Source of the DNA: a virus
IMG/VR virus record: IMGVR_UViG_3300045988_108176
Coordinates: 1-55,487 of that record
DNA length: 55,487 nt
Reading direction: 5' to 3' (one strand)
The translations under genes were made by a program, and so were the position numbers. The first letter of the stretch is position 1, and each line of letters opens with the position of its first letter. Below, in pieces: positions 28,042-55,487 of the stretch. The notes beneath the pieces are model-generated. The model was given only the letters and a program-made list of their open reading frames with translations, was not told the DNA's origin and did not search any database.

Positions 28042-28295
28042 AATTAAATTTTAAAGTTAGGTTAAAGAACAAGTTGTTTTGGACAACCATGATACCTGCC
28101 GTGATTTTACTTGTAACGCAGGTATGTAAATTATTCGGTCTCAATTTGGACCTTAGTGGTGTATCATCTTCGTTACTAGACATAGTTTCTACAGTATTTA
28201 TAATTTTAACAATTTTGGGTATTGTTAATGACCCAACTACTAACGGCATGTCTGATTCAGACCTTGCAATGACATACAAAGAGCCTAAACGATAA
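28038..28295 (+). CDS. holin (phi LC3 / Phage_holin_1 family)
   Basis: NFKVRLKNKLFWTTMIPAVILLV...GIVNDPTTNGMSDSDLAMTYKEPK closely matches the family pattern. Confidence 0.85.
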   Translation: MKLNFKVRLKNKLFWTTMIPAVILLVTQVCKLFGLNLDLSGVSSSLLDIVSTVFIILTILGIVNDPTTNGMSDSDLAMTYKEPKR

Positions 28296-28313
28296 AAACA
28301 TATACTATTATGG
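28290..28313 (+). promoter_or_regulatory. promoter-like core c0 (no hairpin; overlaps the holin stop)
   Basis: cgatAAAAACAtatacTATTATGG. Confidence 0.5.
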
Positions 28314-28348
28314 AGTAAAATCCATACTTTATATTTTAGGAGGATGCT

Positions 28349-28534
28349 ATGAACATTGTTGAAAACATAATCGAAAAGGGTTTGTTTGTTATTGGAGGCG
28401 CTCTGTTGGGGTTGATTATATCTAAAAAGGTATACGACGTCAATAGTGATGCCTATATTAACGACATGGCAAACATACAGTGTAAGCTAGACGAAATTGA
28501 TAGCAAAGTTCAGGTCATTTATGACAGAAAGTAA
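28349..28534 (+). CDS. small membrane protein (cassette 0)
   Basis: 61 aa, AGGAGG SD, TM segment GLFVIGGALLGLII. Confidence 0.6.
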   Translation: MNIVENIIEKGLFVIGGALLGLIISKKVYDVNSDAYINDMANIQCKLDEIDSKVQVIYDRK

Positions 28535-28553
28535 AAAGTAAAACCCAATAAGG

Positions 28554-28613
28554 GCACTCACTTGAAAAACAGTGGGTGTTCTTTTTTGACGATAGAAACA
28601 TGGTGTATTATGG
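28554..28613 (+). promoter_or_regulatory. cassette junction J1: terminator hairpin + T-run + promoter-like core
   Basis: 8-bp stem (2 G-U), loop TTGAAAAACA, TCTTTTTT, then cgatAGAAACA-N5-TATTATGG. Confidence 0.6.
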
Positions 28614-28652
28614 AGTAAAATCCGAAATATTTTTGACATTTAGGAGGAAAAC

Positions 28653-28784
28653 ATGAGTACAATGATATTGTTATTGGCTAAGATAGGGGGTATGATATTG
28701 TTTTATCTACCTTATGTATTGTTCGCAATATTCGAGATATTTGTATGTTATGCGTTTATCAATATCAAATGGTTTGAAAAGTAA
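28653..28784 (+). CDS. 43-aa hydrophobic micropeptide (cassette 1; paralogue of 29835)
   Basis: AGGAGG is 7 nt before the ATG. MSTMILLLAKIGGMILFYLPYVLFAIF... Not in the track (<60 aa). Confidence 0.55.
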   Translation: MSTMILLLAKIGGMILFYLPYVLFAIFEIFVCYAFINIKWFEK

Positions 28785-28803
28785 AGGATTAACCCAGACA
28801 AAG

Positions 28804-28863
28804 GCACTCACTTGAAAAACAGTGGGTGTTCTTTTTTGACGATAGAAACATCGTATATTATGG
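28804..28863 (+). promoter_or_regulatory. cassette junction J2
   Basis: Same hairpin and core. Confidence 0.6.
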
Positions 28864-28903
28864 GATAAATACCAAAAACTATATTTTTTGGAGGATTTTT
28901 GTT

Positions 28904-29227
28904 ATGAAAACGAACTCAAAGGAAATCGACGGAATGGAGAAAGTAAGGAAAGAATTCGAGGAGATGTCTGATGACAATCTAAAAAAATGGACAGAACTCG
29001 TCTTTCAAAAATATGAAGAATACGGTGGCGAGGTTATTGACGCTCACATAAACCCTGATACAGGCGAATTCTGTATCGAGTATAGAGCTGATGGAATTAG
29101 ACTACAAGATGTATTCCATATTCATAACTTTGATAAAGATGAGGGTCGTATTGATTGGATGTGTTGTACTCGAACGTTAGACCCTCTTTCTACGTTTATC
29201 GATGATGAGAACGAAGACAAAGAATAA
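28904..29227 (+). CDS. hypothetical acidic protein (cassette 2)
   Basis: 107 aa. Starts at the ATG after GGAGGA. The track start 28826 lies in the repeat. Confidence 0.6.
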   Translation: MKTNSKEIDGMEKVRKEFEEMSDDNLKKWTELVFQKYEEYGGEVIDAHINPDTGEFCIEYRADGIRLQDVFHIHNFDKDEGRIDWMCCTRTLDPLSTFIDDENEDKE

Positions 29228-29252
29228 GAATAAGGTTTAAAACCCAACTAGG

Positions 29253-29313
29253 GCACTCACTTGAAAAACAGTGGGTGTTCTTTTTTTAACGAGAAAAACA
29301 TATACTATTATGG
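29253..29313 (+). promoter_or_regulatory. cassette junction J3
   Basis: Same hairpin and core. Confidence 0.6.
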
Positions 29314-29353
29314 GATAAATACCCAAAACTATATTTTTTGGAGGATTTTTGTT

Positions 29354-29710
29354 ATGAAATGCTATACTAAGAAGAAGTCGGAAAACGTGCGTGCTGCATT
29401 TAAGGCACAGGCAGAAGCGGCTGAGTACAATTGGCGTTGCTTCTTTGACAAAACTTTTGAAACTTTAGGAGAGTACAGAATGTTGGACGTTTGGTCTAAT
29501 TATGAAACTTGCACGACGTGGTGTATGTTCGAATTTAACAATGAACGATATGATGTGGTCTTCGAGCTAGCAAAAGTGGGCAAAGATTGGAGCGTAAAGG
29601 AATTGAACTTTACCGTATTCGGTACTGACCTGCACATGGCAAGCGTTATTCGTAAATACCTTCTTGATGTATTGAAAAACGTACAAGAAAGAATGGAAAA
29701 CGAAAAATAA
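29354..29710 (+). CDS. hypothetical protein (cassette 3)
   Basis: 118 aa, same 5' UTR as cassette 2. Confidence 0.6.
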   Translation: MKCYTKKKSENVRAAFKAQAEAAEYNWRCFFDKTFETLGEYRMLDVWSNYETCTTWCMFEFNNERYDVVFELAKVGKDWSVKELNFTVFGTDLHMASVIRKYLLDVLKNVQERMENEK

Positions 29711-29733
29711 AAGGTAATATTTATCTACCAAAG

Positions 29734-29793
29734 GCACTCACTTGAAAAACAGTGGGTGTTCTTTTTTGACGATGGAAACAAGCGCTATTATGG
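29734..29793 (+). promoter_or_regulatory. cassette junction J4
   Basis: Same hairpin and core. The 5' UTR is the same as J1. Confidence 0.6.
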
Positions 29794-29834
29794 AGTAAAA
29801 TCCGAAATATTTTTGACATTTAGGAGGCAAAAAC

Positions 29835-29981
29835 ATGGTAACGATAGCAATATTGTCAATATTGTTGTTAGCAGTGATAGGAGGCATTATATTAAGTTAT
29901 ATGCCGTATATCTTAATAGCAATAATGGCAGCATCTGTTATTTTATTAACAGTGGCAGTCTGCAAATGGATTGTAAAATAA
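29835..29981 (+). CDS. 48-aa hydrophobic micropeptide (cassette 4; paralogue of 28653)
   Basis: MVTIAILSILLLAVIGGIILSYMPYILIAI...; AGGAGG SD. Confidence 0.55.
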   Translation: MVTIAILSILLLAVIGGIILSYMPYILIAIMAASVILLTVAVCKWIVK

Positions 29982-30003
29982 AGGATAAAAACCTAAAACT
30001 AGG

Positions 30004-30063
30004 GCACTCACTTGAAATACAGTGGGTGTTCCTTTTTGACGATAAAAACATAGTATATTATGG
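30004..30063 (+). promoter_or_regulatory. cassette junction J5
   Basis: Same hairpin (loop TTGAAATACA) and core. Confidence 0.6.
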
Positions 30064-30103
30064 AGTAAAATCCTAATAAAATTTTTAAAAATGGAGGCAT
30101 ACT

Positions 30104-30166
30104 ATGATTGTCGGTATAATACTATTGGTACTTGGTGTATATCTGATAACAAAGAATGACGGTTGA
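30104..30166 (+). CDS. 20-aa hydrophobic micropeptide (cassette 5)
   Basis: MIVGIILLVLGVYLITKNDG; GGAGG is 7 nt upstream. Confidence 0.35.
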   Translation: MIVGIILLVLGVYLITKNDG

Positions 30167-30194
30167 GAAAAATAAGGTAGGAATTAACACTAAG

Positions 30195-30254
30195 GCACTC
30201 ACTTGAAATACAGTGGGTGTTCCTTTTTGACGAGAAAAACATAGTATATTATGG
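30195..30254 (+). promoter_or_regulatory. cassette junction J6
   Basis: Same hairpin and core. Confidence 0.6.
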
Positions 30255-30337
30255 AGTAAATATATGATATAATTTTATTATGAAAGGAGGAAACTTATGT
30301 AATAAAATAAAGTTTCATATTTTTTGTTATCCTTTGG

Positions 30338-30397
30338 GCACTCACTTGAAATACAGTGGGTGTTCTTACTTGACGATAAAAACATAGTATATTATGG
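30338..30397 (+). promoter_or_regulatory. cassette junction J7 (weak T-run)
   Basis: Same hairpin and core. Confidence 0.5.
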
Positions 30398-30443
30398 AGT
30401 AAAATCCTAATAAAAATTTTTATATTTTTGGAGGAAATTTTTT

Positions 30444-30584
30444 ATGGCAACATTAATCATTTTAGGACTTGTTTGTTCTTTCGCCGGAGGCGTGCTTAGC
30501 GCAATCGGCAACAAAAAACAACAAAGAAAAATGGTACGGGAAGAAGTTAAGAAAATATATATCCACGGATTAAAAAAGAAGTAA
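30444..30584 (+). CDS. 46-aa TM + basic-tail micropeptide (cassette 7)
   Basis: MATLIILGLVCSFAGGVLSAIGNKKQQRK...; GGAGGA SD. Confidence 0.5.
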   Translation: MATLIILGLVCSFAGGVLSAIGNKKQQRKMVREEVKKIYIHGLKKK

Positions 30585-30602
30585 AGGATTAACCGGATAA
30601 GG

Positions 30603-30663
30603 GCACTCACTTGAAAAACAGTGGGTGTTCTTGTTTTTACCAGAAAAACATGTTGTTTTATGG
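30603..30663 (+). promoter_or_regulatory. cassette junction J8 (core variant TTTTATGG)
   Basis: Same hairpin; ccagAAAAACAtgttgTTTTATGG. Confidence 0.55.
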
Positions 30664-30705
30664 GATAAACGCCAATAATTTATATTTTATCGGAGGAAAG
30701 TAACG

Positions 30706-30873
30706 ATGTTCACAGGAGCATGGAAAGTGCTTATAGATATTATATATAACATTACAGGAAGTATGTGTTTAGGAGTATACATATTTTCTTTGTTGACAGT
30801 GTTAGAAATATTATCAATAAGTGTAATTATAGGAAACGTCGCATTACGAATCATTAGAAAAAATAAGAAATAA
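30706..30873 (+). CDS. 55-aa membrane micropeptide (cassette 8)
   Basis: CGGAGGA SD; hydrophobic core CLGVYIFSLLTVLEILSISVIIG. Confidence 0.5.
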   Translation: MFTGAWKVLIDIIYNITGSMCLGVYIFSLLTVLEILSISVIIGNVALRIIRKNKK

Positions 30874-30892
30874 GGTTTAAAACCCAAACTGG

Positions 30893-30952
30893 GCACTCAC
30901 TTGAAAAACAGTGGGTGTTCCATTTTAACATCAAAAACAAGCCCTATTATGG
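30893..30952 (+). promoter_or_regulatory. cassette junction J9
   Basis: Same hairpin, weak T-run, core catcAAAAACAagcccTATTATGG. Confidence 0.5.
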
Positions 30953-30991
30953 AATATTTTCCTAATTTATATTTTTTGGAGGACTTAAGAC

Positions 30992-31150
30992 ATGATTGAC
31001 AAAACGGGATATGACGTTGTGGAATTGAACGACTACAGAATGACTTGTTATCACAAATACGATGATATTAACAAGCTGCATCATTATGTAGTCGTCTACA
31101 TTAAGGACAACGGTGAAGCCGTAGAAACAATATGGACAGATAAAGAATAA
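30992..31150 (+). CDS. 52-aa soluble small protein (cassette 9)
   Basis: GGAGGA SD; MIDKTGYDVVELNDYRMTCYHKYDD... Confidence 0.5.
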   Translation: MIDKTGYDVVELNDYRMTCYHKYDDINKLHHYVVVYIKDNGEAVETIWTDKE

Positions 31151-31185
31151 CAAAAGATAAGACAGGACAGGAATTAACTATGAGA

Positions 31186-31245
31186 GCACTTACTTGAAAT
31201 ACAGTGGGTGTTCTTACTTGACGATAAAAACAAGTGCTATTATGG
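31186..31245 (+). promoter_or_regulatory. cassette junction J10 (stem variant GCACTTAC)
   Basis: Degenerate hairpin and core. Confidence 0.45.
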
Positions 31246-31285
31246 GAACTATTTCCTAATTTATATTTTTTTGGAGGTTTGTGTT

Positions 31286-31480
31286 ATGAACACTAAAGAC
31301 TTGACGATGAAACCGAAATATGAGGATTGTATTACAACAATGATATTGATTGTACAGAATCTGTGGAGCATGAGAACGGATGCGCAGATAACTGACAACC
31401 AATATATGGACATCCTCGCTATGATGGATGACATCGTGTATGGGTTGAGCGAGATTCTCGCAAACCAGAAATACGTGTAA
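31286..31480 (+). CDS. 64-aa small protein (cassette 10)
   Basis: GGAGG SD. The track start 31208 lies in the repeat. Confidence 0.55.
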   Translation: MNTKDLTMKPKYEDCITTMILIVQNLWSMRTDAQITDNQYMDILAMMDDIVYGLSEILANQKYV

Positions 31481-31502
31481 AATAGTTTAAACCCAAACTG
31501 GG

Positions 31503-31562
31503 GCACTCACTTGAAATACAGTGAGTGTTCTTGTTTTACCAGAAAAACATGTTGTTTTATGG
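31503..31562 (+). promoter_or_regulatory. cassette junction J11 (perfect stem GTGAGTG)
   Basis: Hairpin and core variant TTTTATGG. Confidence 0.55.
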
Positions 31563-31595
31563 GATAAATACCCAATTATATTTTTGGAGGATTGT

Positions 31596-34324: not shown

Positions 34325-34442
34325 CGTTTTAGGAACCGTCTGTGATTTGATAGGCGGATTTCTTATCGCAAGATATTTGGAAGACGACATGAAAAAAGAA
34401 ATATCAGCAGAAATAAAAAAGTACGAGACGAAAACAAACTGA
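34311..34442 (+). CDS. possible 43-aa small ORF
   Basis: ATG overlaps the end of 33641. The SD is distant (11 nt). Weak. Confidence 0.25.
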   Translation: MNVINVLGTVCDLIGGFLIARYLEDDMKKEISAEIKKYETKTN

Positions 34443-34466
34443 CGAGAAAAACAAACGCTATTATGG
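34443..34466 (+). promoter_or_regulatory. promoter-like core c12
   Basis: cgagAAAAACAaacgcTATTATGG. Confidence 0.5.
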
Positions 34467-34500
34467 GACACTACCAAAAAAATAAAACTTGGAGGATACT

Positions 34501-34650
34501 ATGATAGTAGGGTTAATATTTGGAATAGTTTGTGTTGTATCAATTTCAAAGGCGGTCCGCAAGTATAAGAAAGACGAAGCGGAAGCATTGAGGAACGAAT
34601 GCGCACATCATATCCATAGAAGTGTACATCATAATATACATGATAGGTAA
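34501..34650 (+). CDS. 49-aa TM peptide with His-rich tail
   Basis: GGAGGA SD; MIVGLIFGIVCVVSIS...HHIHRSVHHNIHDR. Confidence 0.5.
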   Translation: MIVGLIFGIVCVVSISKAVRKYKKDEAEALRNECAHHIHRSVHHNIHDR

Positions 34651-34671
34651 AATAGGTAAGTAGAAAGCAAG

Positions 34672-34712
34672 AGGGTCATCAATAAAACGATGGCCTTTTT
34701 GTTTTATTTTTT
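34672..34712 (+). terminator. rho-independent terminator
   Basis: Stem agggtcatc/gatggcctt (two G-U pairs), 8-nt loop, long T-run. Confidence 0.6.
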
Positions 34713-34714
34713 GA

Positions 34715-34738
34715 CGAGAAAAACAAACTATATTATGG
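34715..34738 (+). promoter_or_regulatory. promoter-like core c13
   Basis: cgagAAAAACAaactaTATTATGG. Confidence 0.5.
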
Positions 34739-34779
34739 GATACTTCCCAATTTTTTAAATTAAGAGGAGATTTATTATT

Positions 34780-45440: not shown

Positions 45441-45499
45441 GTATGAATTTAGCAATTGTCCTGTAACTAGAATAGATTTAATATGGAGGAAGAAATAAA

Positions 45500-45676: not shown

Positions 45677-45691
45677 AATGGAGGAAGAGAT

Positions 45692-45871
45692 ATGATATCG
45701 TTTTTACTTTTCACGGGAATGTTGCTCGGTTTTGAGTTATTGTTTATTGGCACTCACAGTTGTATATATGACGGATTTAGATATGCAATACCGTGGTATG
45801 TCGCGTGGTTTATAATACATGGTGGTACTTTTGTTGGACTATTGCTTATGGCAAGAGGAATCATTGGTTAA
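45692..45871 (+). CDS. 59-aa membrane protein, paralogue A2
   Basis: ...THSCIYDGFRYAIPWYVAWF...; same SD context. Confidence 0.55.
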   Translation: MISFLLFTGMLLGFELLFIGTHSCIYDGFRYAIPWYVAWFIIHGGTFVGLLLMARGIIG

Positions 45872-45890
45872 AATGGAGGAGGAAATTATA

Positions 45891-46169
45891 ATGGATAAAT
45901 TCATTCTAGGTTTTATGGCCGCATGGGCGTTTACGTTTATCTTCACTGGAATTTTTTATAAAATAGAACTATCTTGTGCTGATGGTTCGACATCAAGAAA
46001 AATATTCAATGTCATTACAACCGTAATGGCTAATATTGTTTGGTTGTCTCCTTTTATATTTGCTATAGCCGGTTGTCTGTTTAATTTCATAACCGTGATA
46101 GCGTCGTTAATAATTATAGTCGTGTATTTAATTATAACAGCGGTCATCGGTCAATTTTTTTCTAAATAG
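45891..46169 (+). CDS. 92-aa membrane protein, paralogue B1
   Basis: ...IELSCADGSTSRKIFN...; ATG 45891 follows GGAGGAGG. Confidence 0.6.
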   Translation: MDKFILGFMAAWAFTFIFTGIFYKIELSCADGSTSRKIFNVITTVMANIVWLSPFIFAIAGCLFNFITVIASLIIIVVYLIITAVIGQFFSK

Positions 46170-46178
46170 GAGGTTATT

Positions 46179-46457
46179 ATGGAAAAATTTTTTATCTTCT
46201 TTGTTGCTGCGTTTTTCGCAACATTTATATTTATCGGTATCTTTCATATGATAGAGTTGTCGTGTCCGAACAATTCTACTAGTCGTAAAATCTTCGACTG
46301 TCTGTCAAGCGTATTGACATTCTTACTTTTGATGTCGCCATTTATACTGGCAGTTACCGGGTATATGTTTGGATTCTTCTCTCTTCTCGCGTCTATGATT
46401 ATCGTTGTGGTATACTACATGGTTTTCATATTGGTTGGAAAAACTGTTTTAAAATGA
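46179..46457 (+). CDS. 92-aa membrane protein, paralogue B2
   Basis: ...IELSCPNNSTSRKIFD... Confidence 0.6.
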   Translation: MEKFFIFFVAAFFATFIFIGIFHMIELSCPNNSTSRKIFDCLSSVLTFLLLMSPFILAVTGYMFGFFSLLASMIIVVVYYMVFILVGKTVLK

Positions 46458-46470
46458 GGAGGAAATTATA

Positions 46471-46719
46471 ATGGAAAAAGAAAATAAATTATATCTCCGT
46501 TGGTACAGAATGGAATATTTCGACTGTGATAATGGTCTGTATAAATTCGCAATATACGATAACGAAGGACATATTCAAGACCCGAGGTTCTTCAAGAAAT
46601 GTGACGTAAAAGATTCTATGGCCATTAATCTAACCAGTGACGATGTCAAAGAGTTCATCACTACTGTAAAAAATTACTGCGATAGTGCGATTATAGGATG
46701 TAATTATGGAAGACTCTAA
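46471..46719 (+). CDS. small protein, paralogue C1
   Basis: YKFAIYDNEGHIQDPRFFKKC...INLTSDDVKEFITTVKNY. Confidence 0.55.
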   Translation: MEKENKLYLRWYRMEYFDCDNGLYKFAIYDNEGHIQDPRFFKKCDVKDSMAINLTSDDVKEFITTVKNYCDSAIIGCNYGRL

Positions 46720-46748
46720 CGTTTGATTTATAAGAAGGAGGTAATCAT

Positions 46749-47027
46749 ATGTGTTTCATCTATCATGAATTTAACGACCTTACATTCGAGCGAATCTGCA
46801 CTCTTAACGGTGTATATACAGTTTATATTCGTGAGTGTACTAACGGAACGTACGAACTTTCAATTAGTGAAAAGGGTATTTATATTAATCCGAAGATTTT
46901 CATGAATTGTAAAACGAGAGGTTTGACTGCTGTTAATATGACTCTCAATGATGTTAACGCATTTTGTGACGCTGTGCGCGATTTTGATTTAAAAAATAAA
47001 AAAAAATATAGTTTGTTTGATATATAA
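46749..47027 (+). CDS. small protein, paralogue C2
   Basis: YELSISEKGIYINPKIFMNC...VNMTLNDVNAFCDAVRDF. Confidence 0.55.
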   Translation: MCFIYHEFNDLTFERICTLNGVYTVYIRECTNGTYELSISEKGIYINPKIFMNCKTRGLTAVNMTLNDVNAFCDAVRDFDLKNKKKYSLFDI

Positions 47028-47040
47028 GAAGGAGATAATT

Positions 47041-47301
47041 ATGGAAAACTTTGAGACCATATACCAAAACGAAAAGGAATGGCTTTGTACTCTAGGTGAC
47101 ACATACACTATAGAGTTTTTCGACGGTGTTGCGGGTACGCGTGACCTTGAAATTTATGATAATACGGGGTCTATCATAAATCCGAATGAGTTTATGAATT
47201 GTACCACGGATGGATTCCGTGCAGTTAATTTATCACAGGATGATGTTAAAATGTTTTTAAAAGCAGTAATCAATCACACAGTAGAAAAATCAAGGAGGTA
47301 A
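47041..47301 (+). CDS. small protein, paralogue C3, with an nrdJ-like N-terminus
   Basis: MENFETIYQNEKEWL compares with the RNR N-terminus MEKFETIYKNEKEWL. LEIYDNTGSIINPNEFMNC...VNLSQDDVKMFLKAV. Confidence 0.55.
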   Translation: MENFETIYQNEKEWLCTLGDTYTIEFFDGVAGTRDLEIYDNTGSIINPNEFMNCTTDGFRAVNLSQDDVKMFLKAVINHTVEKSRR

Positions 47302-47303
47302 TT

Positions 47304-49787
47304 ATGGAAAAATTTGAAACCATTTACAAAAACGAAAAAGAGTGGCTTGGTGAAGACAACACTCTGGGATTGGATATTTGGAAGAAGAAATACGCCGATG
47401 GTAGAACATACCACGAATGGATGTATGACGTAACTGGTGGTGATATGCAATTGGCTAAACTCATCGAATCCAAGAAGTTTCTGTTCGGAGGTCGTATACT
47501 CGCGAATCGTAATAATGCGTCAGTGACTTCCAAAAAGACATACAGCAATTGTTACGTAATTGCCCCCCCTGAAGATAATCTTGAATCTATCTTTAACACG
47601 GCTAAGAAACTCGCACGTACGTTCTCGTACGGAGGTGGTTGTGGTATAGACCTGAGTAAGCTGTCGTTCAAAGGAGCTGCTATCCATAATGCAGCTAAAT
47701 CAAGTAGCGGTGTAGTGTCTTTTATGGAGTTGTATGATAAGACAACTGAAATTATTGGACAAAACGGACGTCGAGGTGCATTGATGATGTCGTTATCGTC
47801 TAATCATCCTGATATTTTGGAATTCATTGATGTAAAGCGAGACCTTAAGAAAATAAACAACGCAAATTTGTCTGTACGAGTGGATGATGATTTTATGATT
47901 AAGGCTAGAGACACGGATGAAGAGAACTACGAATTGATATTTAATCGTAGTATGTACGATTCCGAGACTAAGACTGAAAACGACATGTCTGGCACAAAGA
48001 TAAATCCTAATGCGTTACTGATGAAGTTGAGTGAGTATAATTGGGAAACCGGCGAGCCCGGAATTTTATTCTGGGATAATATATGTCGAGGAGGATTGCT
48101 TAGTAATGAACCGGGATTTAACTACGGTGGCGTAAATCCTTGCGCCGAAGAACCTCTTCCTTCCGGAGGAAGCTGTTTGCTCGGTGCTCTTAACTTGTCT
48201 GCGTTCTGTAAATGGGATAACGACTATAACTCGTACATTTTCGACTACCTCGATTTTATCGAGGCTATTGATATTTCTGTACGTGCCTTGAATAAGGTTT
48301 TAGATGAAGGCGTCGACTTGCATCCTCTGCGTGAACAAACCGAATCTGTAAAGCGCTGGAGACAAATAGGACTTGGAATTATGGGGTTCGCTGATACCCT
48401 TATCAAACTCGATATGGTTTATGGTAGCCCTGAATCCTTTACATTCATAACAGATGTCGGTAGTCTAATGGCATATTACGCTCTCATGACAAGTAATAAA
48501 ATAGCCATAGAAAATCCAAGTAAGAAGGTAGATTTGGAATACGACGCGTTGATGAACACTAGTTATATGATTAATTTATGTAATACTATTGCGGAAGATA
48601 ATACGGTTTGTAAATTTTTCAGAGACAATAAAATAGAGAATTATAAATTCGACAAGAAAACTATTGTGGATTTTCTGAACAGTATATACAAATATGGGTT
48701 AGCGAATTCGCAACTCCTAACTGTTGCTCCTACTGGTAGTATAGCTACCATGATTGACGTATCTGGTGGTATTGAACCGTTGTTCGCAACGCATTACAAT
48801 CGTGTAACCAAAAGCCTTAACGGTGAAGATACGACGTATACAGTATATCCTAAAGTAATAAAAGACGTCATTGCTAGTAAATATGGAAAGTGTGTAGATG
48901 TTAGTGATATAGACCTCTCATCAGAAGAATCCATCATCACATCGCATGATATACCGTATTACAATAGACTTAAAGTGCAATCAGTGTGGCAGAAATTTAT
49001 TGATGCTGCTATTAGCTCAACAGTAAATCTGAAAGAGGATGTTACTCCTGAAGATATTTGCGATTTATACATTACAGCATGGGAACTCGGTCTTAAAGGT
49101 GTAACTGTATTCAGGGACAATTGTTATAGGACAGCCATACTAACGACTAATGATAAGGAAGAAAAAGAAGAACCTGTTGATGTCGTTGAAGAACCAGTTG
49201 ACGATGCAAAGACAACTCTTAAGAGAGGTGAAGTAATCCCGATAAGTGACTACAGTTACGGTCTTAGAAAGACATTGACAACTGGTTGTGGCACGCTTCA
49301 TTTGGAATCCTTTTATGACCTTGACACTGGCGAATTAAGAGAATGTTTCCTTTCGAAGGGGTCTACTGGTGGATGTAATTCGTTTATGGTTGCAGTATCT
49401 AGACTTATAAGCCTAGCAGCACGTGCTGGAGTTCCTTCGTATAAAATAATCGACCAACTTAAATCAGCTGGTACCTGTCCTTCTTACGCGGTCAGGAAAG
49501 CGACTATGAACGACGTATCTATTGGTTCATCGTGTCCGTGCGCAGTTGGATACGCATTAGAAGAACTTGAGAAAATGATACCTAAAAATGAACCTATCAA
49601 CGAAAAAATTGAAATTTCGAGCCTAGGTTCCAAACTAATGAAGCCTATTGAGAAGGCAGAAGAAAAACTGTGGTCGAAGTTCGGCCCAACGATATATGAA
49701 GAATGCCCGAAATGTGGAGAACGTGCTGTGTTTCGTACGAACGGCTGTATTACGTGCTCTAGTTGCGGGTATACAAAATGTGATTAG
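47304..49787 (+). CDS. nrdJ: class II (adenosylcobalamin-dependent) ribonucleotide reductase
   Basis: GVNPCAEEPLPSGGSCLLGALNLS active-site loop, TSCPD-like TGCGTLHLE...GSTGGC, C-terminal zinc ribbon CPKCG...GCITCSSCGYTKC. Confidence 0.8.
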   Translation: MEKFETIYKNEKEWLGEDNTLGLDIWKKKYADGRTYHEWMYDVTGGDMQLAKLIESKKFLFGGRILANRNNASVTSKKTYSNCYVIAPPEDNLESIFNTAKKLARTFSYGGGCGIDLSKLSFKGAAIHNAAKSSSGVVSFMELYDKTTEIIGQNGRRGALMMSLSSNHPDILEFIDVKRDLKKINNANLSVRVDDDFMIKARDTDEENYELIFNRSMYDSETKTENDMSGTKINPNALLMKLSEYNWETGEPGILFWDNICRGGLLSNEPGFNYGGVNPCAEEPLPSGGSCLLGALNLSAFCKWDNDYNSYIFDYLDFIEAIDISVRALNKVLDEGVDLHPLREQTESVKRWRQIGLGIMGFADTLIKLDMVYGSPESFTFITDVGSLMAYYALMTSNKIAIENPSKKVDLEYDALMNTSYMINLCNTIAEDNTVCKFFRDNKIENYKFDKKTIVDFLNSIYKYGLANSQLLTVAPTGSIATMIDVSGGIEPLFATHYNRVTKSLNGEDTTYTVYPKVIKDVIASKYGKCVDVSDIDLSSEESIITSHDIPYYNRLKVQSVWQKFIDAAISSTVNLKEDVTPEDICDLYITAWELGLKGVTVFRDNCYRTAILTTNDKEEKEEPVDVVEEPVDDAKTTLKRGEVIPISDYSYGLRKTLTTGCGTLHLESFYDLDTGELRECFLSKGSTGGCNSFMVAVSRLISLAARAGVPSYKIIDQLKSAGTCPSYAVRKATMNDVSIGSSCPCAVGYALEELEKMIPKNEPINEKIEISSLGSKLMKPIEKAEEKLWSKFGPTIYEECPKCGERAVFRTNGCITCSSCGYTKCD

Positions 49788-49807
49788 AAAGGAAAGGAGG
49801 TCGTGTT

Positions 49808-50008
49808 GTGACCTTACGTGATTTTTTAAACTTATTCTCAGATGATGAATGTGGTTTTGTCATCATAAATAACGTAAACGATAATCATAATATGATATTA
49901 TCGAAGCATCAGGTAATAATGATGCACGAAGACAAACTAAATAATGTTATAAAACGTGTGTATCCATATGCATGGAATTGGGAGGTTATTTTCGAAATAA
50001 ACGTATGA
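49808..50008 (+). CDS. hypothetical protein (GTG start)
   Basis: AAGGAGGT is 6 nt upstream. Confidence 0.45.
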   Translation: MTLRDFLNLFSDDECGFVIINNVNDNHNMILSKHQVIMMHEDKLNNVIKRVYPYAWNWEVIFEINV

Positions 50009-50467: not shown

Positions 50468-50486
50468 TAAAATAGTAAAAATCTAT

Positions 50487-50845
50487 GCCCACTTTTGGAG
50501 AAAAAAGTGGGCATAAAAGTGGGCAAAAGTGGGCAAAAGTGGGTGGAATGCGTAAATACGCACATTTATATTTTTAAAATGTGGGTTTTTCTGCCCACTT
50601 TTACCATTTTCAGCCCACTTTTGGAGAAAAAAATGGCCACGAAAAATAGGCAAATAATATATTATTTGGGGGTAAAAATGCCCAAAATGGGGTAAAAATG
50701 GGTATTTTTGGGCAAAATAATATATTATTTGGGGGTAAAAACGCTTCTGTGGCCAAAAACCCACTTTTTTTCTTTATGATTATTATTATTAATATTATTA
50801 ATAAAAAGTTTTATCGAAAAAAAAGTGGGTTTTTGGCCACGAGTA
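50487..50845. repeat. iteron-like region: at least 10 copies of AAAAGTGGG(C/T) in both orientations, two 27-nt direct repeats each with a 14-bp AT palindrome, and an AT-only tract
   Basis: - Inverted pair: 50487-50496 and 50503-50512
- Tandem copies: 50515-24, 50525-34, 50535-44
- Reverse-orientation copies: 50593-602, 50613-22, ~50759
- Forward-orientation copy: ~50820
- caaa(t/a)aatatattatttgggggtaaaaa twice, at ~50651 and ~50713. Confidence 0.8.
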
Positions 50846-50867
50846 GTTTTTTCGGTCAAGGGGGTGA

Positions 50868-50891
50868 CGAGAAAAACAAGGCCTTTTATGA
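50868..50891 (+). promoter_or_regulatory. promoter-like core c14 upstream of the tRNA
   Basis: cgagAAAAACAaggccTTTTATGA. Confidence 0.45.
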
Positions 50892-50938
50892 TAGGAATAG
50901 ATGAAGAATGACTTTAGAAGCATTCCTTTATATTTTTT

Positions 50939-51024
50939 GCTCGTGTGGCGGAATTGGCATACGCAACGGACTTAAAATCCGTCGAATTTCATTCATGTGG
51001 GTTCAAGTCCCACCACGAGTACCA
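50939..51024 (+). tRNA. tRNA-Leu (anticodon UAA), class II long variable arm, encoded CCA
   Basis: - Acceptor stem GCTCGTG/CACGAGT (G1-U72)
- D stem GCG/CGC with GG in the loop
- Anticodon stem ACGGA/TCCGT, loop CTTAAAA
- Variable arm GAAT/ATTC
- T arm GTGGG-TTCAAGT-CCCAC, then A-CCA. Confidence 0.85.
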
Positions 51025-51050
51025 TTTATATTTTTAGTTATGGAGATTTT

Positions 51051-51341
51051 ATGAAAGAATCGGCATTTCAAACCCAATTAATATCCGAACTAAAGAAACG
51101 ATTTGAGGGGTGTATTGTTTTAAAGAACGATCCCTCTTACATTCAGGGTATACCGGACTTATTAGTTTTATACAATGATATTTGGTTCGCTCTAGAGTGT
51201 AAGAAAAATGATACGGCTCATAAACAACCTAACCAAGAGTATTACGTAAAAAAGATGGATGATATGAGTTACGCTGCATTTATAAACCCTAATAATAAAG
51301 AGGAGATACTGAATGATTTGGAACAAGCATTTAAATCTTGA
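51051..51341 (+). CDS. VRR-NUC / PD-(D/E)xK nuclease (resolvase-like)
   Basis: GIPDLLVLY...FALECKK...QPNQEYY. ATG 51051 is used because the track start lies inside the tRNA. Confidence 0.6.
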   Translation: MKESAFQTQLISELKKRFEGCIVLKNDPSYIQGIPDLLVLYNDIWFALECKKNDTAHKQPNQEYYVKKMDDMSYAAFINPNNKEEILNDLEQAFKS

Positions 51342-51873
51342 ATCAAGCCACTGTTTGTTTTCACCATCCAAATATTCGTGGTTAAATTATTCGGATGATA
51401 AAGCACTAGAAGTTTATAACAATTTAAAAAAAGTTGAACTTGGAACACGATTACATGCATGGGCCAAGGAAACCATCGAATTAAAACTTCGTCAGGCCAA
51501 TAGGAAGAACAACATCATATACAAGTACATAAACGATGCAATCGACTATAGGATGGACCCAGAAGTACTGTTATATTTTAGTCCGTATTTTTATGGAACA
51601 GCTGACGCGATTAGTTTCTATAAGAATGTCCTTCGTATTCACGATTTGAAAACTGGAGATACTCCGGCCAAAATAGACCAGCTTAGAATATATGCTGCCC
51701 TATTTTGTTTAGAGTACGGACAAGACCCGTTTTTAATAAAAATGGAACTTAGAATATATCAGGCAGACAACGTAATTATTGATATTCCTAATCCTGCCGA
51801 GATTAAGGCAATTATGGATAAGATAATTCACTTGAATGATATCTTACGTAAAAATGATGAGGAGTTTATGTAA
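51313..51873 (+). CDS. PD-(D/E)xK (RecB/Cas4-like) exonuclease
   Basis: GTADAI...LRIHDLKTG...QLRIYAALF. Confidence 0.55.
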   Translation: MIWNKHLNLESSHCLFSPSKYSWLNYSDDKALEVYNNLKKVELGTRLHAWAKETIELKLRQANRKNNIIYKYINDAIDYRMDPEVLLYFSPYFYGTADAISFYKNVLRIHDLKTGDTPAKIDQLRIYAALFCLEYGQDPFLIKMELRIYQADNVIIDIPNPAEIKAIMDKIIHLNDILRKNDEEFM

Positions 51874-51875
51874 TT

Positions 51876-54788
51876 ATGAACATATCATATGATTTCAATG
51901 ATATTTATGAAAATGAAAGTCACATAGAGCACTATGGTATGCCTCGTCGTTCAGGGCGTTATCCATGGGGGTCTGGTGATAATCCGTTTCAACACGAAGG
52001 CTGGTATAAGCATCCGGGTGACTTTCTAGACTTTATTAAACAGGCTAGAAAAGAGAAATATGAATATACGGATGAAGACGGAGTGTTATACACAGGTGAT
52101 AATGCTATAGCTAAGGTTCTTCGTATCTCAACGACTGATTTAAGGAGTCAGATTGGTATAGCTAAGGATGAAAAACGTCTTTACGATGTTTATAGAGTTG
52201 AGTCTTTAAGAAAAGATGGTCTTAATGATTCTGAAATTTCAAGAAAGACCGGAATACCGTTGTCGACAGTTAAATCTCTGTTCGACGCTGATTCTAAACG
52301 AAGAATGCTGCAGGCTAAAAATGCTGCTGAATTCATAAAGAATCGAATCGATGATGTCGGTATGGTTGATGTCGGTACTGATGTATGTCGAGAGCTTGGC
52401 ATAAGTCAGGAAAAAATGAACCAAGCATTGACAATACTTAAATCCAAAGGATACAAAATCTACTCTGGACGAGTAGAGCAACCTACTAATAGAAAACAGT
52501 TTACTACGATGAAAGTTGCATGTCCTCCGGGCACAGAACATAGAGAAATATATGAAAATTGGGGAAATGTTAACTCGTTGATTGAATATACTTCGGACGA
52601 CGGTGGACAAACATTTAGAAAAACTCAATATCCTGCTTCTCTTGAGAGAAAGAGAGTTATGATTCGATACGCAGATGACGTTGGGCCTGATGGTTTTAAA
52701 GGTATTCAAAAAGATGGTGTAATCGAAATACGAAGAGGCGTTAAAGACTTATCTCTTGGCAACTCTATGTATTCACAGGTTCGTATTCTTGTAGGTAAAG
52801 ACAAATACCTTAAAGGAATGGCTGTTTATGCTGACGGCAAAGATATGCCTGACGGTGTTGATGTAATATTTAACACCAATAAGTCGTCAAATAAATCATT
52901 TGATGAAGTATTAAAAAGCATAAAAGAGGATGACCCTAACAATCCGTTCGGAGCATTGATTAAAGCTGATGGTCAGTATGAGTATGTCGATTCCAATGGC
53001 AAAAAGAAACTTTCTCCTATTAATAAAACTAGAGAAGAAGGAGATTGGGACGAATGGAAAAAGGCTGTGCCTAGTCAGTTCTTATCCAAACAACCTAAGT
53101 ATTTAGCTAAAAAGCAAATCGATTTGGCTATAGCTGAGAAAAAAGATGAATTGGCCGAGATAATGTCTTACAATGTACCTGAAGTACAACGATATTATCT
53201 AAACAAATTCGCTGAATCCTGTGATAAGCAAGCTGAAACACTTCAAGCGGCATCGTTTCCTGACCAGCACTACAACGTAATCCTTCCTATAAACTCACTT
53301 AGGAACAACGAAATTTATGCGCCTAGGTATGACAACGGAACTAAATTAGCTTTGGTAAGGTATCCTCATGGCGGAACATTTGAAATACCTATACTAACAG
53401 TTAATAACCGTAATAAAGAAGGTGAAAAAGTTATTGGGCCGTCGTCCATTGATGCTGTTGGCATAACATCTGAAGTTGCAGCTCGATTGTCAGGCGCTGA
53501 CTTTGATGGAGATACTGTAATGTGTATTCCGACAAACGACCCTGAAGGAAAGATTAACATCTTATCGACTGCGCCGTTAGCTGGTCTGAAAGGATTCGAC
53601 CCCAAAGATAAATTCCAAGGTAATTTAGTTAAAACAGTCGGAGATACTAAGATTTATGAGCGTAATGGAGTAAAGTTTAAAGGTATGCTTGCCACTCAAA
53701 AGGAAATGGGTGTAGCAACCAATCTAATTAGTGACATGACAATTCTCGGCGCATCTGACGATGAGCTTGAACGTGCTGTCAAATACTCTATGGTAGTTAT
53801 CGATGCTGAAAAACATGGATTGGACTACAAGGCTGCATACTACGAGTATAACATACAAGATTTAAAAGACCGTTATCAGATTAAAGCTAACGGAAAAACA
53901 GGTGGTGCTTCTACTTTGTTAACCAGAGCTAAAAGTGCTGAGTATGTTAATCGTAGAAAAGGTTCTCCTAAAGTTAATGTTAAAGGAAAACCTTGGTATG
54001 ACCCTTCAAGACCTGAAGGTTCTCTCATATGGCAGGAAGACCCGGACCAAATTGCAACATTTAAAAAGTATGACCCTAAAACTGGCGAATTAATCTCAGT
54101 TAAAGAGGTCGAGAAGAAAACAAAAATTTCTAAAATGGCTGCTACAGATGACCCAAGGACTTTAATCTCTACGTCTAACACCGTAATGGAGAATCTGTAC
54201 GCGGACTATGCGTCTACATTAAAGTCGTTGGCCAATCAGGCTCGTCTAAACGACGTATTCTCCGAGAAGGCAAAAAGAGACCCCGTCGCTACATCTAAAT
54301 ACGCGGAAGAGGTACAGTCTCTTAAGAGAAAATTGGATTTAGCACTCCTGAATAGACCCAGAGAGCGTGCCGCTATCCGTCTAGCCACTTCAGAAATCGA
54401 AGGTATACGTACAGCGTATAAAGACAAGCACGGTGGTAACGACATGCCCACGAAAGACCTCAAAAAGCTCTCCCAGAATACTATGGTTAAATATAGGGGT
54501 CTTGTAGGGTCTATAAAACGTAGCGATAGAAATATAAAAATAACAGAACCGGAATGGGAAGCTATTAAAAATAGGGCTATATCGGAAAATGACCTCAAGA
54601 AAATTTTAGACAATTCTGACCCCGATGTACTAAGGGAAAAACTTAGACCTAAGGGCGATGACGGTCTCACCGATGCTCGTAAATCAGCCATCCGAGCCAT
54701 GGCGAATAGCAATTATACCCTAAAGGAAATTGCCAAACGCTTTGGAATATCAACATCCACCGTATCAAATATAATAAAGGGGGGTTAA
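51876..54788 (+). CDS. candidate single-subunit two-barrel RNA polymerase (YonO / RdRP-like) with HTH segments and an HYG...GRYPWGSG N-terminal module
   Basis: LALVRYPHGGTFEIPIL...AARLSGADFDGDTVMCIP (DFDGD at nt 53499-53513) parallels beta-prime NADFDGD and the QDE-1 LSGGDYDGD context. HTH-like segments are LNDSEISRKTGIPLSTVKSLF and YTLKEIAKRFGISTSTVSNII. Confidence 0.5.
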   Translation: MNISYDFNDIYENESHIEHYGMPRRSGRYPWGSGDNPFQHEGWYKHPGDFLDFIKQARKEKYEYTDEDGVLYTGDNAIAKVLRISTTDLRSQIGIAKDEKRLYDVYRVESLRKDGLNDSEISRKTGIPLSTVKSLFDADSKRRMLQAKNAAEFIKNRIDDVGMVDVGTDVCRELGISQEKMNQALTILKSKGYKIYSGRVEQPTNRKQFTTMKVACPPGTEHREIYENWGNVNSLIEYTSDDGGQTFRKTQYPASLERKRVMIRYADDVGPDGFKGIQKDGVIEIRRGVKDLSLGNSMYSQVRILVGKDKYLKGMAVYADGKDMPDGVDVIFNTNKSSNKSFDEVLKSIKEDDPNNPFGALIKADGQYEYVDSNGKKKLSPINKTREEGDWDEWKKAVPSQFLSKQPKYLAKKQIDLAIAEKKDELAEIMSYNVPEVQRYYLNKFAESCDKQAETLQAASFPDQHYNVILPINSLRNNEIYAPRYDNGTKLALVRYPHGGTFEIPILTVNNRNKEGEKVIGPSSIDAVGITSEVAARLSGADFDGDTVMCIPTNDPEGKINILSTAPLAGLKGFDPKDKFQGNLVKTVGDTKIYERNGVKFKGMLATQKEMGVATNLISDMTILGASDDELERAVKYSMVVIDAEKHGLDYKAAYYEYNIQDLKDRYQIKANGKTGGASTLLTRAKSAEYVNRRKGSPKVNVKGKPWYDPSRPEGSLIWQEDPDQIATFKKYDPKTGELISVKEVEKKTKISKMAATDDPRTLISTSNTVMENLYADYASTLKSLANQARLNDVFSEKAKRDPVATSKYAEEVQSLKRKLDLALLNRPRERAAIRLATSEIEGIRTAYKDKHGGNDMPTKDLKKLSQNTMVKYRGLVGSIKRSDRNIKITEPEWEAIKNRAISENDLKKILDNSDPDVLREKLRPKGDDGLTDARKSAIRAMANSNYTLKEIAKRFGISTSTVSNIIKGG

Positions 54789-54791
54789 AAT

Positions 54792-55079
54792 ATGGTATAC
54801 TCTCGGTTATCAACTATCGATAACCCATGGAACCCATTCGATAACTTCGATGAGTGGTTACAATATGATAACCTCCATCACTACAATACATGTGGGTATG
54901 TATCTAGGGTATTAGATATGAATAATGCTAATTTATCTGGTTTACCAGACTTTATAGCAGAAAGGATAAACGAATCAGTCATTGACCAAATAATAAATGC
55001 TGACCCTTTGAACTTTTATGTGAAAGTTCAGAAAGAGTTTCCAAATGTTTTGTTTGATGAAAATGGTTCTTTAGTCTAG
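54792..55079 (+). CDS. hypothetical protein
   Basis: 95-aa ORF, last gene before the large non-coding region. Confidence 0.5.
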   Translation: MVYSRLSTIDNPWNPFDNFDEWLQYDNLHHYNTCGYVSRVLDMNNANLSGLPDFIAERINESVIDQIINADPLNFYVKVQKEFPNVLFDENGSLV

Positions 55080-55432: not shown

Positions 55433-55487
55433 CCCCACCGCAGCGTCGTTTGTAGCACCCCGGGGGGGGGTCTGAAAAACAACCCCC
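55433..55487. repeat. terminal direct repeat, copy 2 (identical to 1..55)
   Basis: 55/55 nt identical to the window start. Confidence 0.95.

Follow-up and report, generated by a model that had tools for sequence, protein, structure and literature searches.

What does the 970-amino-acid (aa) open reading frame (ORF) near the right end of IMG/VR virus record IMGVR_UViG_3300045988_108176 encode, and, if it encodes a polymerase, what does that polymerase read? The record was analyzed from position 1 to position 55,487, and this whole stretch of 55,487 nucleotides (nt) is referred to here as the window. A first-pass annotation, made by a model from the letters of the window alone, proposed that the ORF (51876-54788, + strand) encodes a stand-alone two-barrel RNA polymerase (RNAP) of the YonO/QDE-1 kind that also carries helix-turn-helix (HTH) segments. 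The coordinates and length of the ORF hold, and the frame opens with ATG. We conclude that the ORF very probably encodes a two-barrel nucleotide polymerase. With a rough probability of 0.6, we further propose that this polymerase is a promoter-specific DNA-dependent RNAP that reads a repeated genomic motif through its own HTH modules.

The motif layout that drew attention to this ORF consists of LALVRYPHGGTFEIPIL (aa 491-507), a gap of 27 aa, and AARLSGADFDGDTVMCIP (aa 535-552), and it is retained throughout the family. Conservation was assessed in an alignment of 132 relatives, which were taken from 50%-identity clusters and are 41-53% identical to the window protein. In this alignment, S539, G540, A541, D542, D544, G545, and D546 of the SGADFDGD loop are 100% invariant, as are R495 and P497. 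Likewise invariant are Q301, R303, K313-G314, and D329, with D280 conserved at 98%. Because the loop, R495, P497, and the other positions do not vary across 132 relatives, a chance motif is incompatible with the data. In the structure model, SGADFDGD has a helix on one side and a strand on the other and is part of a beta-barrel region (aa 465-553) whose strands were modeled at 465-471, 479-481, 490-495, 506-509, 527-530, and 547-553. Strands of the preceding, Rpb2-like double-psi beta-barrel (DPBB) were modeled at 282-286, 299-306, 310-319, and 330-333. The two long helices that follow the second barrel carry M611, G612, N616, L617, D620, D643, K646, and H647, all invariant, and are collinear in hhalign with the YonO segments IGEISNNITKIW and IDYAKT. 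Positions of all features are collected in Table 1.

Structure comparison provided evidence for the fold. A full-length AlphaFold2 model built on 39 sequences reached a predicted local distance difference test (pLDDT) score of 77. When this model was searched against the PDB with Foldseek, the only significant matches were QDE-1 and RDR2 (E values of 1.6e-7 to 9e-4). A second model, restricted to the core (aa 225-770; pLDDT 78.5, predicted TM-score 0.70), retrieved 18 matches at E <= 1e-3, and all of them (18/18) are single-subunit two-barrel RNAPs. The best were QDE-1 from two fungi (E 5.7e-9, 530-575 aligned columns), the RNAP gp64 of Thermus phage P23-45 (8f72; E 1.5e-7), gp62 of P74-26 (E about 1e-6; gp64 and gp62 together ranged from 1.5e-7 to 2e-6), and RDR2 from Arabidopsis and maize (E about 4e-5). 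The beta-prime/Rpb1 chains of AR9, vaccinia, bacterial, and eukaryotic RNAPs followed at E 0.003-0.06. The alignment to QDE-1 spans the whole core, including aa 276-336, and therefore covers the other (Rpb2-like) barrel as well. Since all 18 top matches are two-barrel RNAPs, the model does contain a DPBB fold around DFDGD, as the first-pass annotation had anticipated. That annotation had also named YonO, QDE-1, and the crAss-like phage protein gp66 (PDB 6VR4; PMC10770324) as structures on which to look for superposable barrels. QDE-1 was indeed the top match, but gp66 was absent from the top 50 structural matches of the core model. A search of the BFVD viral structure library returned only fragments and uninformative matches.

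The stand-alone assignment gains further support from protein family data and from published predictions. The protein matched PHROG 4291, "RNA-dependent RNA polymerase," almost end to end (E = 0, 1021.6 bits), with aa 12-968 covering profile positions 7-906 of 909. In 2010, Ruprich-Robert and Thuriaux placed the protein of Lactococcus phage 1706 among five "YonO-like" families (PMC2919709), and the window polymerase belongs to this "phage 1706" branch (PHROG 4291). Koert et al. (2021) reported the DxDGD loop together with HTH domains at the N and C termini and a match to Pfam RdRP by HHpred (bioRxiv 10.1101/842583). Their account covers phages of Streptomyces (cluster BI), Arthrobacter, Gordonia, Lactococcus, and Faecalibacterium, and speaks of a "potential RNA polymerase" (bioRxiv 10.1101/842583). 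The window copy is thus a new sequence in a known, uncharacterized, and already predicted family. Because the in silico prediction has been published, the novelty of the polymerase finding itself is limited; what is new here is the candidate promoter, the co-distribution argument, the mapping of active-site residues, and the definition of a shared N-terminal peptide.

The family is large and widely distributed. By tblastn, the polymerase was found in 250 phage records out of 50,697; identity to the window protein was 34-50%, over 98-100% of the length for 249 records. These records were distributed over phages of Arthrobacter (n = 95), Gordonia (n = 55), Streptomyces (n = 54), Lactococcus (n = 13), Curtobacterium (n = 7), Microbacterium (n = 4), Rhodococcus (n = 4), and Faecalibacterium (n = 2), together with the gut "Siphovirus contig89" group (n = 12) and Caudovirus (n = 2). 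Most are annotated as "helix-turn-helix DNA-binding domain protein" and a few as "RNA-dependent RNA polymerase." When 1.84 billion cluster representatives were searched with the family profile, at least 3,398 clusters at 50% identity matched at E <= 0.001, of which 1,143 reached E <= 1e-30. A nucleotide search of the same 50,697 phage records gave no match to the window copy. The best protein identity among GenBank phages was 50%, to an unannotated human-gut phage, and proteins 95-98% identical were found only in metagenome assemblies.

We then mapped the active site. Eight residues are invariant in all two-barrel RNAPs and correspond in QDE-1 to D709, R738, K743, R962, P964, D1007, D1009, and D1011 (PMC2919709). 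Candidate counterparts occur in the same order in the window protein, namely, D280 (98%) and R303, K313, R495, P497, D542, D544, and D546 (all 100%). The R495/P497 pair was aligned by hhalign to R492/P494 of YonO; the known pair is R962/P964 in QDE-1 and R446/P448 in Rpb1. For the first barrel, the order of the acidic and the two basic candidates (D280, R303, and K313) matches that of D709/R738/K743 in QDE-1 and D837/K979/K987 in Rpb2. Of these three, K313 alone is backed by an alignment: YLKGMAV pairs with WVKGLLV of YonO, which places K313 opposite K271 (local hhalign, 7 columns). Elsewhere, hhalign paired RYPH with RSPH, SGADFDGD with QFDNDGD, MG.xSNLIxDM with IGEISNNITKIW, and VIDAEKH with IDYAKT. 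A shallow alignment set against the single YonO sequence gave only a meaningless 17-column match. In the published HHpred analysis, an alignment of the family matched Pfam RdRP with 95.7% probability (bioRxiv 10.1101/842583). In the proposed chemistry, the catalytic Mg would be bound by the D542-x-D544-x-D546 loop of the second barrel, the active site would be completed from the first barrel by D280, R303, and K313, and R495/P497 would be the invariant R/P pair.

The catalytic core is flanked by predicted DNA-binding modules. At the C terminus (aa 930-968), two Pfam models exceeded their cutoffs: Sigma70_r4 with 35.3 bits (cutoff, 24.1) and HTH_23 with 36.6 bits (cutoff, 24.6). In the N-terminal HTH region (aa ~103-141), Pfam HTH matches remained under threshold. 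Together with the PHROG 3855 match listed in Table 1, these results confirm the two HTH-like segments first suggested near the N terminus (~aa 105-135) and at the extreme C terminus. HTH chains in the PDB also matched the profile of the polymerase family at E 0.03-0.3. The whole-protein sigma factor model TIGR02937 scored 22.3 bits, under its cutoff of 42.9, and covered the C-terminal HTH only. No Pfam match to region 2 (Sigma70_r2) was found in the 970-aa protein, and no NCBIfam model exceeded its cutoff. Judged by these profiles, the polymerase possesses a sigma-like module but is no sigma factor.

What might such an enzyme read? The window contains a repeat cassette in which a terminator hairpin is followed by TTGACGA(T/G)AAAAACA-N5-TATTATGG(G/A)(A/G)TAAA. 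One version of the promoter-like motif is CTCGCAGAAATTACACACCCTATAATGAGACCCC, and that of the window is TTGACGAGAAAAACAAACGCTATTATGGGA. The core of the motif, ACA-N5-TAnnnT-G with a conserved upstream block, was found by a position weight matrix (PWM) in 15 copies in the window, all on the + strand. A pattern search of the window retrieved 18 matches against 2.1 expected, again exclusively on the + strand. In an automated search, 13/14 copies were followed at a distance of 35-48 nt by a start codon with a Shine-Dalgarno sequence in front of it; the distance returned for the copy at 30239 was 11 nt. The copy that precedes the polymerase operon (50864-50892) deviates from the others in having TTTTATGA in place of TATTATGG.

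The same layout occurs at the corresponding genome position in relatives that infect hosts of different phyla. It takes the form TCGCGTAAATTACA-N5-TATAAT in Arthrobacter phage Elsa, TTTAAGTTTTACA-TACCC-TATAATGA in Lactococcus phage P078, and CTCGCAAGAATTACA-N5-TATA(A/G)TGAGACCCCTAC in Streptomyces phage TonyStarch (60% G+C); Gordonia phage Rickmore and Microbacterium phage Camille resemble TonyStarch. The upstream half of the motif varies by lineage, and ACA-N5-TAnnnT-G is common to all. A PWM in which each genome had equal weight was applied at a threshold of 14 bits to seven genomes, which gave 15 (window), 7, 10, 10, 9, 8, and 2 matches. The relatives were five phages of Arthrobacter, Lactococcus, Streptomyces, Gordonia, and Microbacterium (7-10 matches each) and MT835495, the closest gut phage record (2 matches in its first 50 kb, the part that was scanned). 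All 61 of the 61 matches fell on the + strand, compared with 0-1 matches in shuffled sequences and 0 in a 50-kb control from SPbeta. In Camille, P078, Rickmore, MT835495, and the window, the polymerase operon is preceded by a copy, which is often degenerate.

Motif and polymerase gene also travel together. Used as a blastn query, a 53-nt Gordonia version of the motif matched 202/50,697 phage records, assigned to Arthrobacter (n = 64), Gordonia (n = 55), Streptomyces (n = 53), Siphovirus (n = 12), Lactococcus (n = 8), Rhodococcus (n = 4), Microbacterium (n = 4), and Caudovirus (n = 2). The host-genus distributions of the motif and of the polymerase gene in phage records are almost identical. 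Promoters are mentioned neither in the preprint of Koert et al. (bioRxiv 10.1101/842583) nor in the Arthrobacter phage paper, and the ReqiPepy6 record has no promoter annotation at its motif sites.

A reading of the repeated motif as a canonical sigma-70 promoter was considered and rejected. The spacer between TTGACG and TATTAT is 14 nt long, which is why a sigma-70 scan does not call the cassette sites, and the element 5 bp ahead of TAnnnT occupies a position that sigma-70 does not read. The copy at 50876 was read by the same scan as GTGACG-17-TATGAT; because this copy is readable as a sigma-70-like site, the host RNAP might start the polymerase operon.

We favor the following mechanism. The promoter would span ~27 bp, (T)CGC/GACG-w-A-n-A-ww-ACA-N5-TAnnnT-G-R-R, and its upstream half would be read by the fused HTH modules (aa ~60-140 and the C-terminal sigma-region-4-like segment). 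The AT-rich hexamer TAnnnT would be melted, and RNA would start at or just after the conserved G/purine run. On this account the template would be DNA, the product RNA rather than DNA, and the reader of the motif the phage enzyme rather than the host RNAP. Such promoters would stand in front of the many small genes that follow the tail module, of the replication module, and of the tRNA/nuclease/polymerase operon itself. The assignment of the motif to the phage RNAP follows the logic used for P23-45, in which conserved promoter motifs lie upstream of gene clusters and are common to relatives (PMC10770324).

Several points weigh against this interpretation. The comparison of the 132-sequence alignment with a 34-sequence YonO alignment is weak, since the 150 columns are collinear but the hhalign probability is 2% (E 0.023). 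Pfam RdRP (PF05183) scored 11.6 bits (E 0.11), under its cutoff of 23.8, and matched the DFDGD region only. Searches of PDB sequences with the protein or with a 39-sequence profile retrieved nothing but ribosomal L24 noise and HTH chains, which puts QDE-1 out of the reach of sequence methods. The TM-scores to QDE-1 are modest (0.38-0.43). D280 and R303 are candidate counterparts matched by pattern only. In the literature searched, we found no biochemical study of the PHROG 4291 family and no transcript or proteomic data for it. The phages share one ancestor, so that co-distribution of motif and gene is expected in part regardless of function. The cassettes of the window end in classical hairpin-plus-T-run terminators. 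YonO, the only characterized relative, transcribes one late operon and not early genes (PMC5467207). Finally, a host RNAP aided by a phage activator would explain the motif equally well, because the variants TATAGT, TATGGT, and TATGAT keep the TAnnnT that is read by sigma-A.

This last point leads to an alternative that we consider unlikely but credible. The protein would still be a two-barrel RNAP, but the motif would be read by host sigma-A with a phage activator, and the phage enzyme would serve later genes from one or a few undetected promoters, as YonO does for the SPbeta late operon. The motif copies would then be early promoters that depend on the host and also turn on the polymerase operon. 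There is precedent for such an arrangement in the middle promoters of T4, where the activator MotA binds upstream and helps the host RNAP. Besides the retained TAnnnT of the three variants, the sigma-70-like geometry of the copy before the polymerase operon (GTGACG-17-TATGAT) fits this alternative. So does the position of the motif ahead of small mid-genome genes, each with an intrinsic terminator, as such genes are presumably often early ones. The single late operon served by YonO (PMC5467207) points the same way, and a 27-kb structural module with few gaps would need only one promoter, to which repeat searches are blind. On the other hand, a -35 element is absent at 16-18 nt, and a TG extension is lacking in the Lactococcus, Streptomyces, Gordonia, and Arthrobacter versions. 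The block from about -13 to -30 and the first transcribed bases are kept across hosts of 33%-60% G+C, which sigma-A does not explain. Moreover, repeat searches found no second repeated motif that could serve the phage enzyme, and canonical sigma-70 sites were not enriched around the operon, in the first 10 kb of the structural module, or elsewhere in the regions examined.

A role outside gene transcription is improbable. The enzyme might make primer or activating transcripts at an iteron-rich, origin-like region directly upstream of its operon, with the HTH modules bound to iterons, or it might carry out RNA-templated synthesis, to which its PHROG name and its QDE-1/RDR2 neighbors point. The closest solved structures are indeed RNA-silencing RNA-dependent RNA polymerases, and QDE-1 is active on both DNA and RNA templates (PMC9508822). 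Iterons of the form AAAAGTGGGCA, with an AT-rich palindrome, adjoin the polymerase operon and occur at the same place in TonyStarch. However, the phage already encodes a large primase-polymerase: the 1301-aa protein at 38026-41931 matches Pfam DUF5906, the syntenic gene in relatives is annotated as DNA primase/polymerase, and the phage therefore has its own priming enzyme. The structural neighbors of the window protein include the proven transcriptase gp64, and YonO is a DNA-dependent transcriptase. RNA-mediated controls of the kind required were unknown in bacteria according to the 2010 review (PMC2919709), and the co-distributed promoter-like motif would be left without a reader. It is more improbable still that the protein is merely a large HTH DNA-binding regulator with a dead or mispredicted polymerase-like core: most of the 250 phage records are so annotated and only HTH models pass the curated Pfam and NCBIfam thresholds, but this annotation mirrors the contents of curated model libraries and is not a test, whereas the candidate catalytic residues are 98-100% invariant in 132 sequences of 41-53% identity and the significant Foldseek matches are exclusively two-barrel RNAPs.

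The N terminus of the proposed promoter-specific RNAP raises the further question of packaging. A conserved motif, HYGMPRRSGRYPWGSG, is present family-wide, with G21, S26, G27, R28, G32, and G34 invariant and H19 and Q39 conserved at >=96% (n = 132). The N-terminal module noticed at first pass is therefore real, with six residues invariant across the 132 relatives. The segment that holds it (aa 1-48) was modeled with very low AlphaFold confidence (pLDDT ~30). The first-pass annotation also related this module to two putative virion proteins encoded at 3200-4069 and 5160-6605 and suggested on that ground that the polymerase may be packaged or ejected too. These proteins match Pfam DUF7211 (E 5.8e-5 and 3.8e-10, respectively) and PHROG 7502 and 32444, families without an annotated function. 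Searches with both proteins by tblastn and against PHROG returned only "hypothetical" or unknown-function matches, and nothing on DUF7211 was found in the literature searched.

The proposed relationship survives in part. The polymerase N terminus gave no match to a 25-residue DUF7211 profile, even at E <= 10. In contrast, the short core [LIVMF]xH[HY]G[VIMLT] occurred 11 times when four genomes were translated in six frames (~199,000 residues), whereas 200 shuffles gave 1.5 +/- 1.3 occurrences with a maximum of 6. Every one of these matches (11/11) falls in a polymerase N terminus or in a DUF7211 protein that flanks terminase/portal. With 11 matches against 1.5 expected, a short LxHYG-type peptide common to the polymerase and the DUF7211 proteins is real. 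In the window, the motif LxHHGVKGQRWGFRRYQ occurs once in the 3200-4069 protein and twice in the 5160-6605 protein, and the three copies are similar at the nucleotide level. In Elsa and TonyStarch, LAHYGVxGMKWG counterparts flank terminase and portal.

A virion-delivered enzyme would fit three features of the sequence: the lysin gene directly upstream of the polymerase in P078, the lack of a detectable terminator before the structural genes, and the placement of the operon under the same promoter class. One can extend this to a self-sufficient, one-polypeptide transcription machine, with a minimal two-barrel core and sigma-like modules of its own for promoter recognition, that is loaded into the capsid via an LxHYG...GRYPWGSG peptide and ejected with the DNA. 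The peptide would be a targeting signal common to the polymerase and the DUF7211 proteins. The enzyme would run essentially the whole phage program, including its own operon, from one ~27-bp promoter class and independently of the host RNAP, in thousands of siphoviruses of Actinobacteria and Firmicutes. We regard this extended scenario as speculative and rather doubtful.

The genomic surroundings of the polymerase are conserved. The window has 36% G+C, and nearly all long ORFs lie on the + strand. Its ends (1-55 and 55433-55487) are an identical 55-nt stretch, and the assembly is therefore closed (circular or terminally overlapping), with 55,432 unique bases. We rejected these identical ends as a biological terminal repeat; an assembly overlap of a circular contig is the simpler explanation. 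The assembly break falls in the noncoding gap where related linear genomes physically end. No terminator was detected on the + strand in the stretch that runs from 55079 to the first gene of the left end at 269. The polymerase had initially been taken for the last gene before this gap, but it is the penultimate one, followed by a 95-aa ORF (54792-55079). A small gene occupies this terminal position in every annotated relative inspected.

In the annotated relatives inspected, the right end of the linear genome reads (HNH), VRR-Nuc, Cas4-like, polymerase, small gene, end, and the order in the window is alike. The sole exception is Lactococcus phage P078, in which the gene immediately before the polymerase encodes a lysin and not a Cas4-like protein. 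The left end of relatives holds lysin, HNH, terminase, portal, and a capsid-protease fusion. In the window, a fused capsid maturation protease and major capsid protein is encoded at 11097-12866 (PHROG 3270, E 2e-206), with relatives annotated alike. Because the GTG start of the VRR-Nuc ORF overlaps the tRNA, its true start is probably an internal ATG near 51051. Arthrobacter phage Qui (113,685 bp, twice the usual size) carries an endonuclease, an exonuclease, an 898-aa "HTH protein," and a small gene at 46119-49949, and five places that match the promoter query occur alongside this polymerase cassette.

The noncoding region 50480-50860 resembles an origin of replication. It contains ~10 iterons in both orientations, some phased at 10 bp (7 pattern matches against 1.0 expected), as well as a perfect 23-nt inverted repeat that flanks an AT-only palindrome. 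TonyStarch has the same iteron (AAAAGTGGCA) in the same place, and Rickmore has a degenerate version there; the iteron regions in the records of relatives lie at 44870-45230 (L003) and 45260-45420 (L005). Short tandem duplications of small genes, including their ribosome-binding sites, were observed at 45479-45900 and 47017-47351. One set has a 195-nt period, and the other is a pair spaced by 263 nt, in which the second copy forms the beginning of the gene for ribonucleotide reductase. This gene (47304-49787) encodes an 827-aa ribonucleotide reductase with a TSCPD domain.

Table 1. Coordinates of the polymerase gene, its predicted domains, its neighbors, and the promoter-like motif copies in the window
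Feature	Position	Strand	Evidence
Two-barrel RNA polymerase gene (predicted)	51876..54788	+	ATG start, 970 aa; end includes stop codon
N-terminal conserved motif IEHYGMPRRSGRYPWGSGDNPFQ, aa 17-39	51924..51992	+	Family-wide conservation
N-terminal HTH region, aa ~103-141	52182..52298	+	PHROG 3855 "HTH DNA binding protein," E 3.5e-7
First (beta/Rpb2-like) DPBB core, aa 276-336 (predicted)	52701..52883	+	D280-G281, Q301, R303, K313-G314, D329, N333, K336; 97-100% conserved (n = 132)
Second (beta-prime/Rpb1-like) DPBB, aa 465-553, with R495-Y-P497-H498 (predicted)	53268..53534	+	Model strands and conservation
Predicted catalytic metal-binding loop D542-F-D544-G-D546	53499..53513	+	100% invariant (n = 132); aligned to YonO D535/D537/D539
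Two long helices after second barrel, aa 607-647, candidate bridge-helix region	53694..53816	+	Model helices 607-623, 628-647
C-terminal sigma-region-4-type HTH, aa 930-968	54663..54779	+	Pfam Sigma70_r4 and HTH_23
12 terminator-plus-promoter cassettes (candidate) before small genes	28282..31572	+	Repeat, pattern, and PWM searches
Two motif copies heading replication module	34435..34748	+	Pattern search; PWM 28.7 and 26.1 bits
Motif copy (GGGGGTGACGAGAAAAACAAGGCCTTTTATGATAGGAATAGA) upstream of tRNA/VRR-Nuc/Cas4-like/polymerase operon	50860..50901	+	PWM 18.6 bits; pattern search
tRNA-Leu(TAA)	50939..51024	+	ARAGORN; first product after promoter copy 50876, 45 nt downstream
VRR-Nuc-type endonuclease gene	50997..51341	+	PHROG 93, E 1.9e-17; relatives annotated VRR-Nuc
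Cas4-like PD-(D/E)xK exonuclease gene	51313..51873	+	PHROG 3953, E 5.9e-67; directly upstream of polymerase
95-aa terminal gene after polymerase	54792..55079	+	PHROG 4303, E 1.8e-19

Single-subunit relatives of the cellular RNAP are rare windows on the minimal two-barrel machine, and only YonO, QDE-1, gp66, and the P23-45 enzymes have been studied. The 250 sequenced phages that carry the polymerase include many from student phage-hunting, and their hosts are easy to handle (Arthrobacter, Gordonia, Streptomyces, Microbacterium, and Lactococcus). Orthologs in culturable phages include gp91 of Rickmore, the right-end gene of Elsa, and P078_0077. A concrete candidate promoter is now available for the enzyme. 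If the promoter assignment is true, it would show promoter recognition by a two-barrel polymerase without a separate sigma factor, provide a compact orthogonal polymerase-promoter pair for Gram-positive hosts, and allow ~200 genome annotations to be corrected.

Among known systems, the phage 1706 branch shares with the window protein the full-length PHROG 4291 match, the penultimate position at the right end, the DxDGD loop, and both HTH segments. YonO is a proven DNA-dependent RNAP of the SPbeta late operon whose promoter is unknown (PMC5467207). Like the window protein, it is a single polypeptide (840-970 aa for the two) from a tailed phage of Gram-positive bacteria. The RxPH, DxDGD, (I/M)G.(I/V)SN.IT, and (I)D.AK motifs are collinear between the two, and a K-G motif is present in the first barrel, although homology is undetectable by ordinary profile statistics (hhalign 2%). 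Precomputed annotations show no Pfam HTH in YonO, which carries a cluster of four cysteines at its C terminus (probably a zinc ribbon), whereas the window protein has HTH segments at both ends and the HYG...SGRYPWGSG peptide.

QDE-1 and RDR2 (Pfam PF05183) have the same barrel order, Rpb2-like and then Rpb1-like, and the same eight invariant positions, for which the window residues are candidates. Sequence identity is 12-15%, and the window protein differs in lacking a eukaryotic-type context, in carrying HTH modules, and in its predicted template, phage double-stranded DNA. The non-virion gp64 of P23-45 and gp62 of P74-26 are siphovirus-encoded single-subunit two-barrel transcriptases, as is predicted for the window enzyme. 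However, gp64 is ~590 aa long and without the fused HTH modules, and its promoters are GC-rich (PMC10770324). P23-45 additionally has a virion RNAP fused to its tape measure protein. Templated, Mg-dependent RNA synthesis is documented for YonO, QDE-1, and gp64.

The virion RNAPs of N4-like, crAss-like (phi14:2 gp66), and phiKZ-like phages offer a further parallel. These systems combine a phage RNAP with conserved promoters before clusters of small, presumably early genes, as is proposed here, and gp66 is a two-barrel enzyme. The N4 virion RNAP is a T7-like right-hand polymerase, not a two-barrel one. Unlike YonO, QDE-1, and gp64, the window protein has a catalytic core flanked by predicted DNA-binding modules. 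By its domain profile, it represents the only branch met in this analysis in which a two-barrel core appears fused to HTH/sigma-region-4-like modules.

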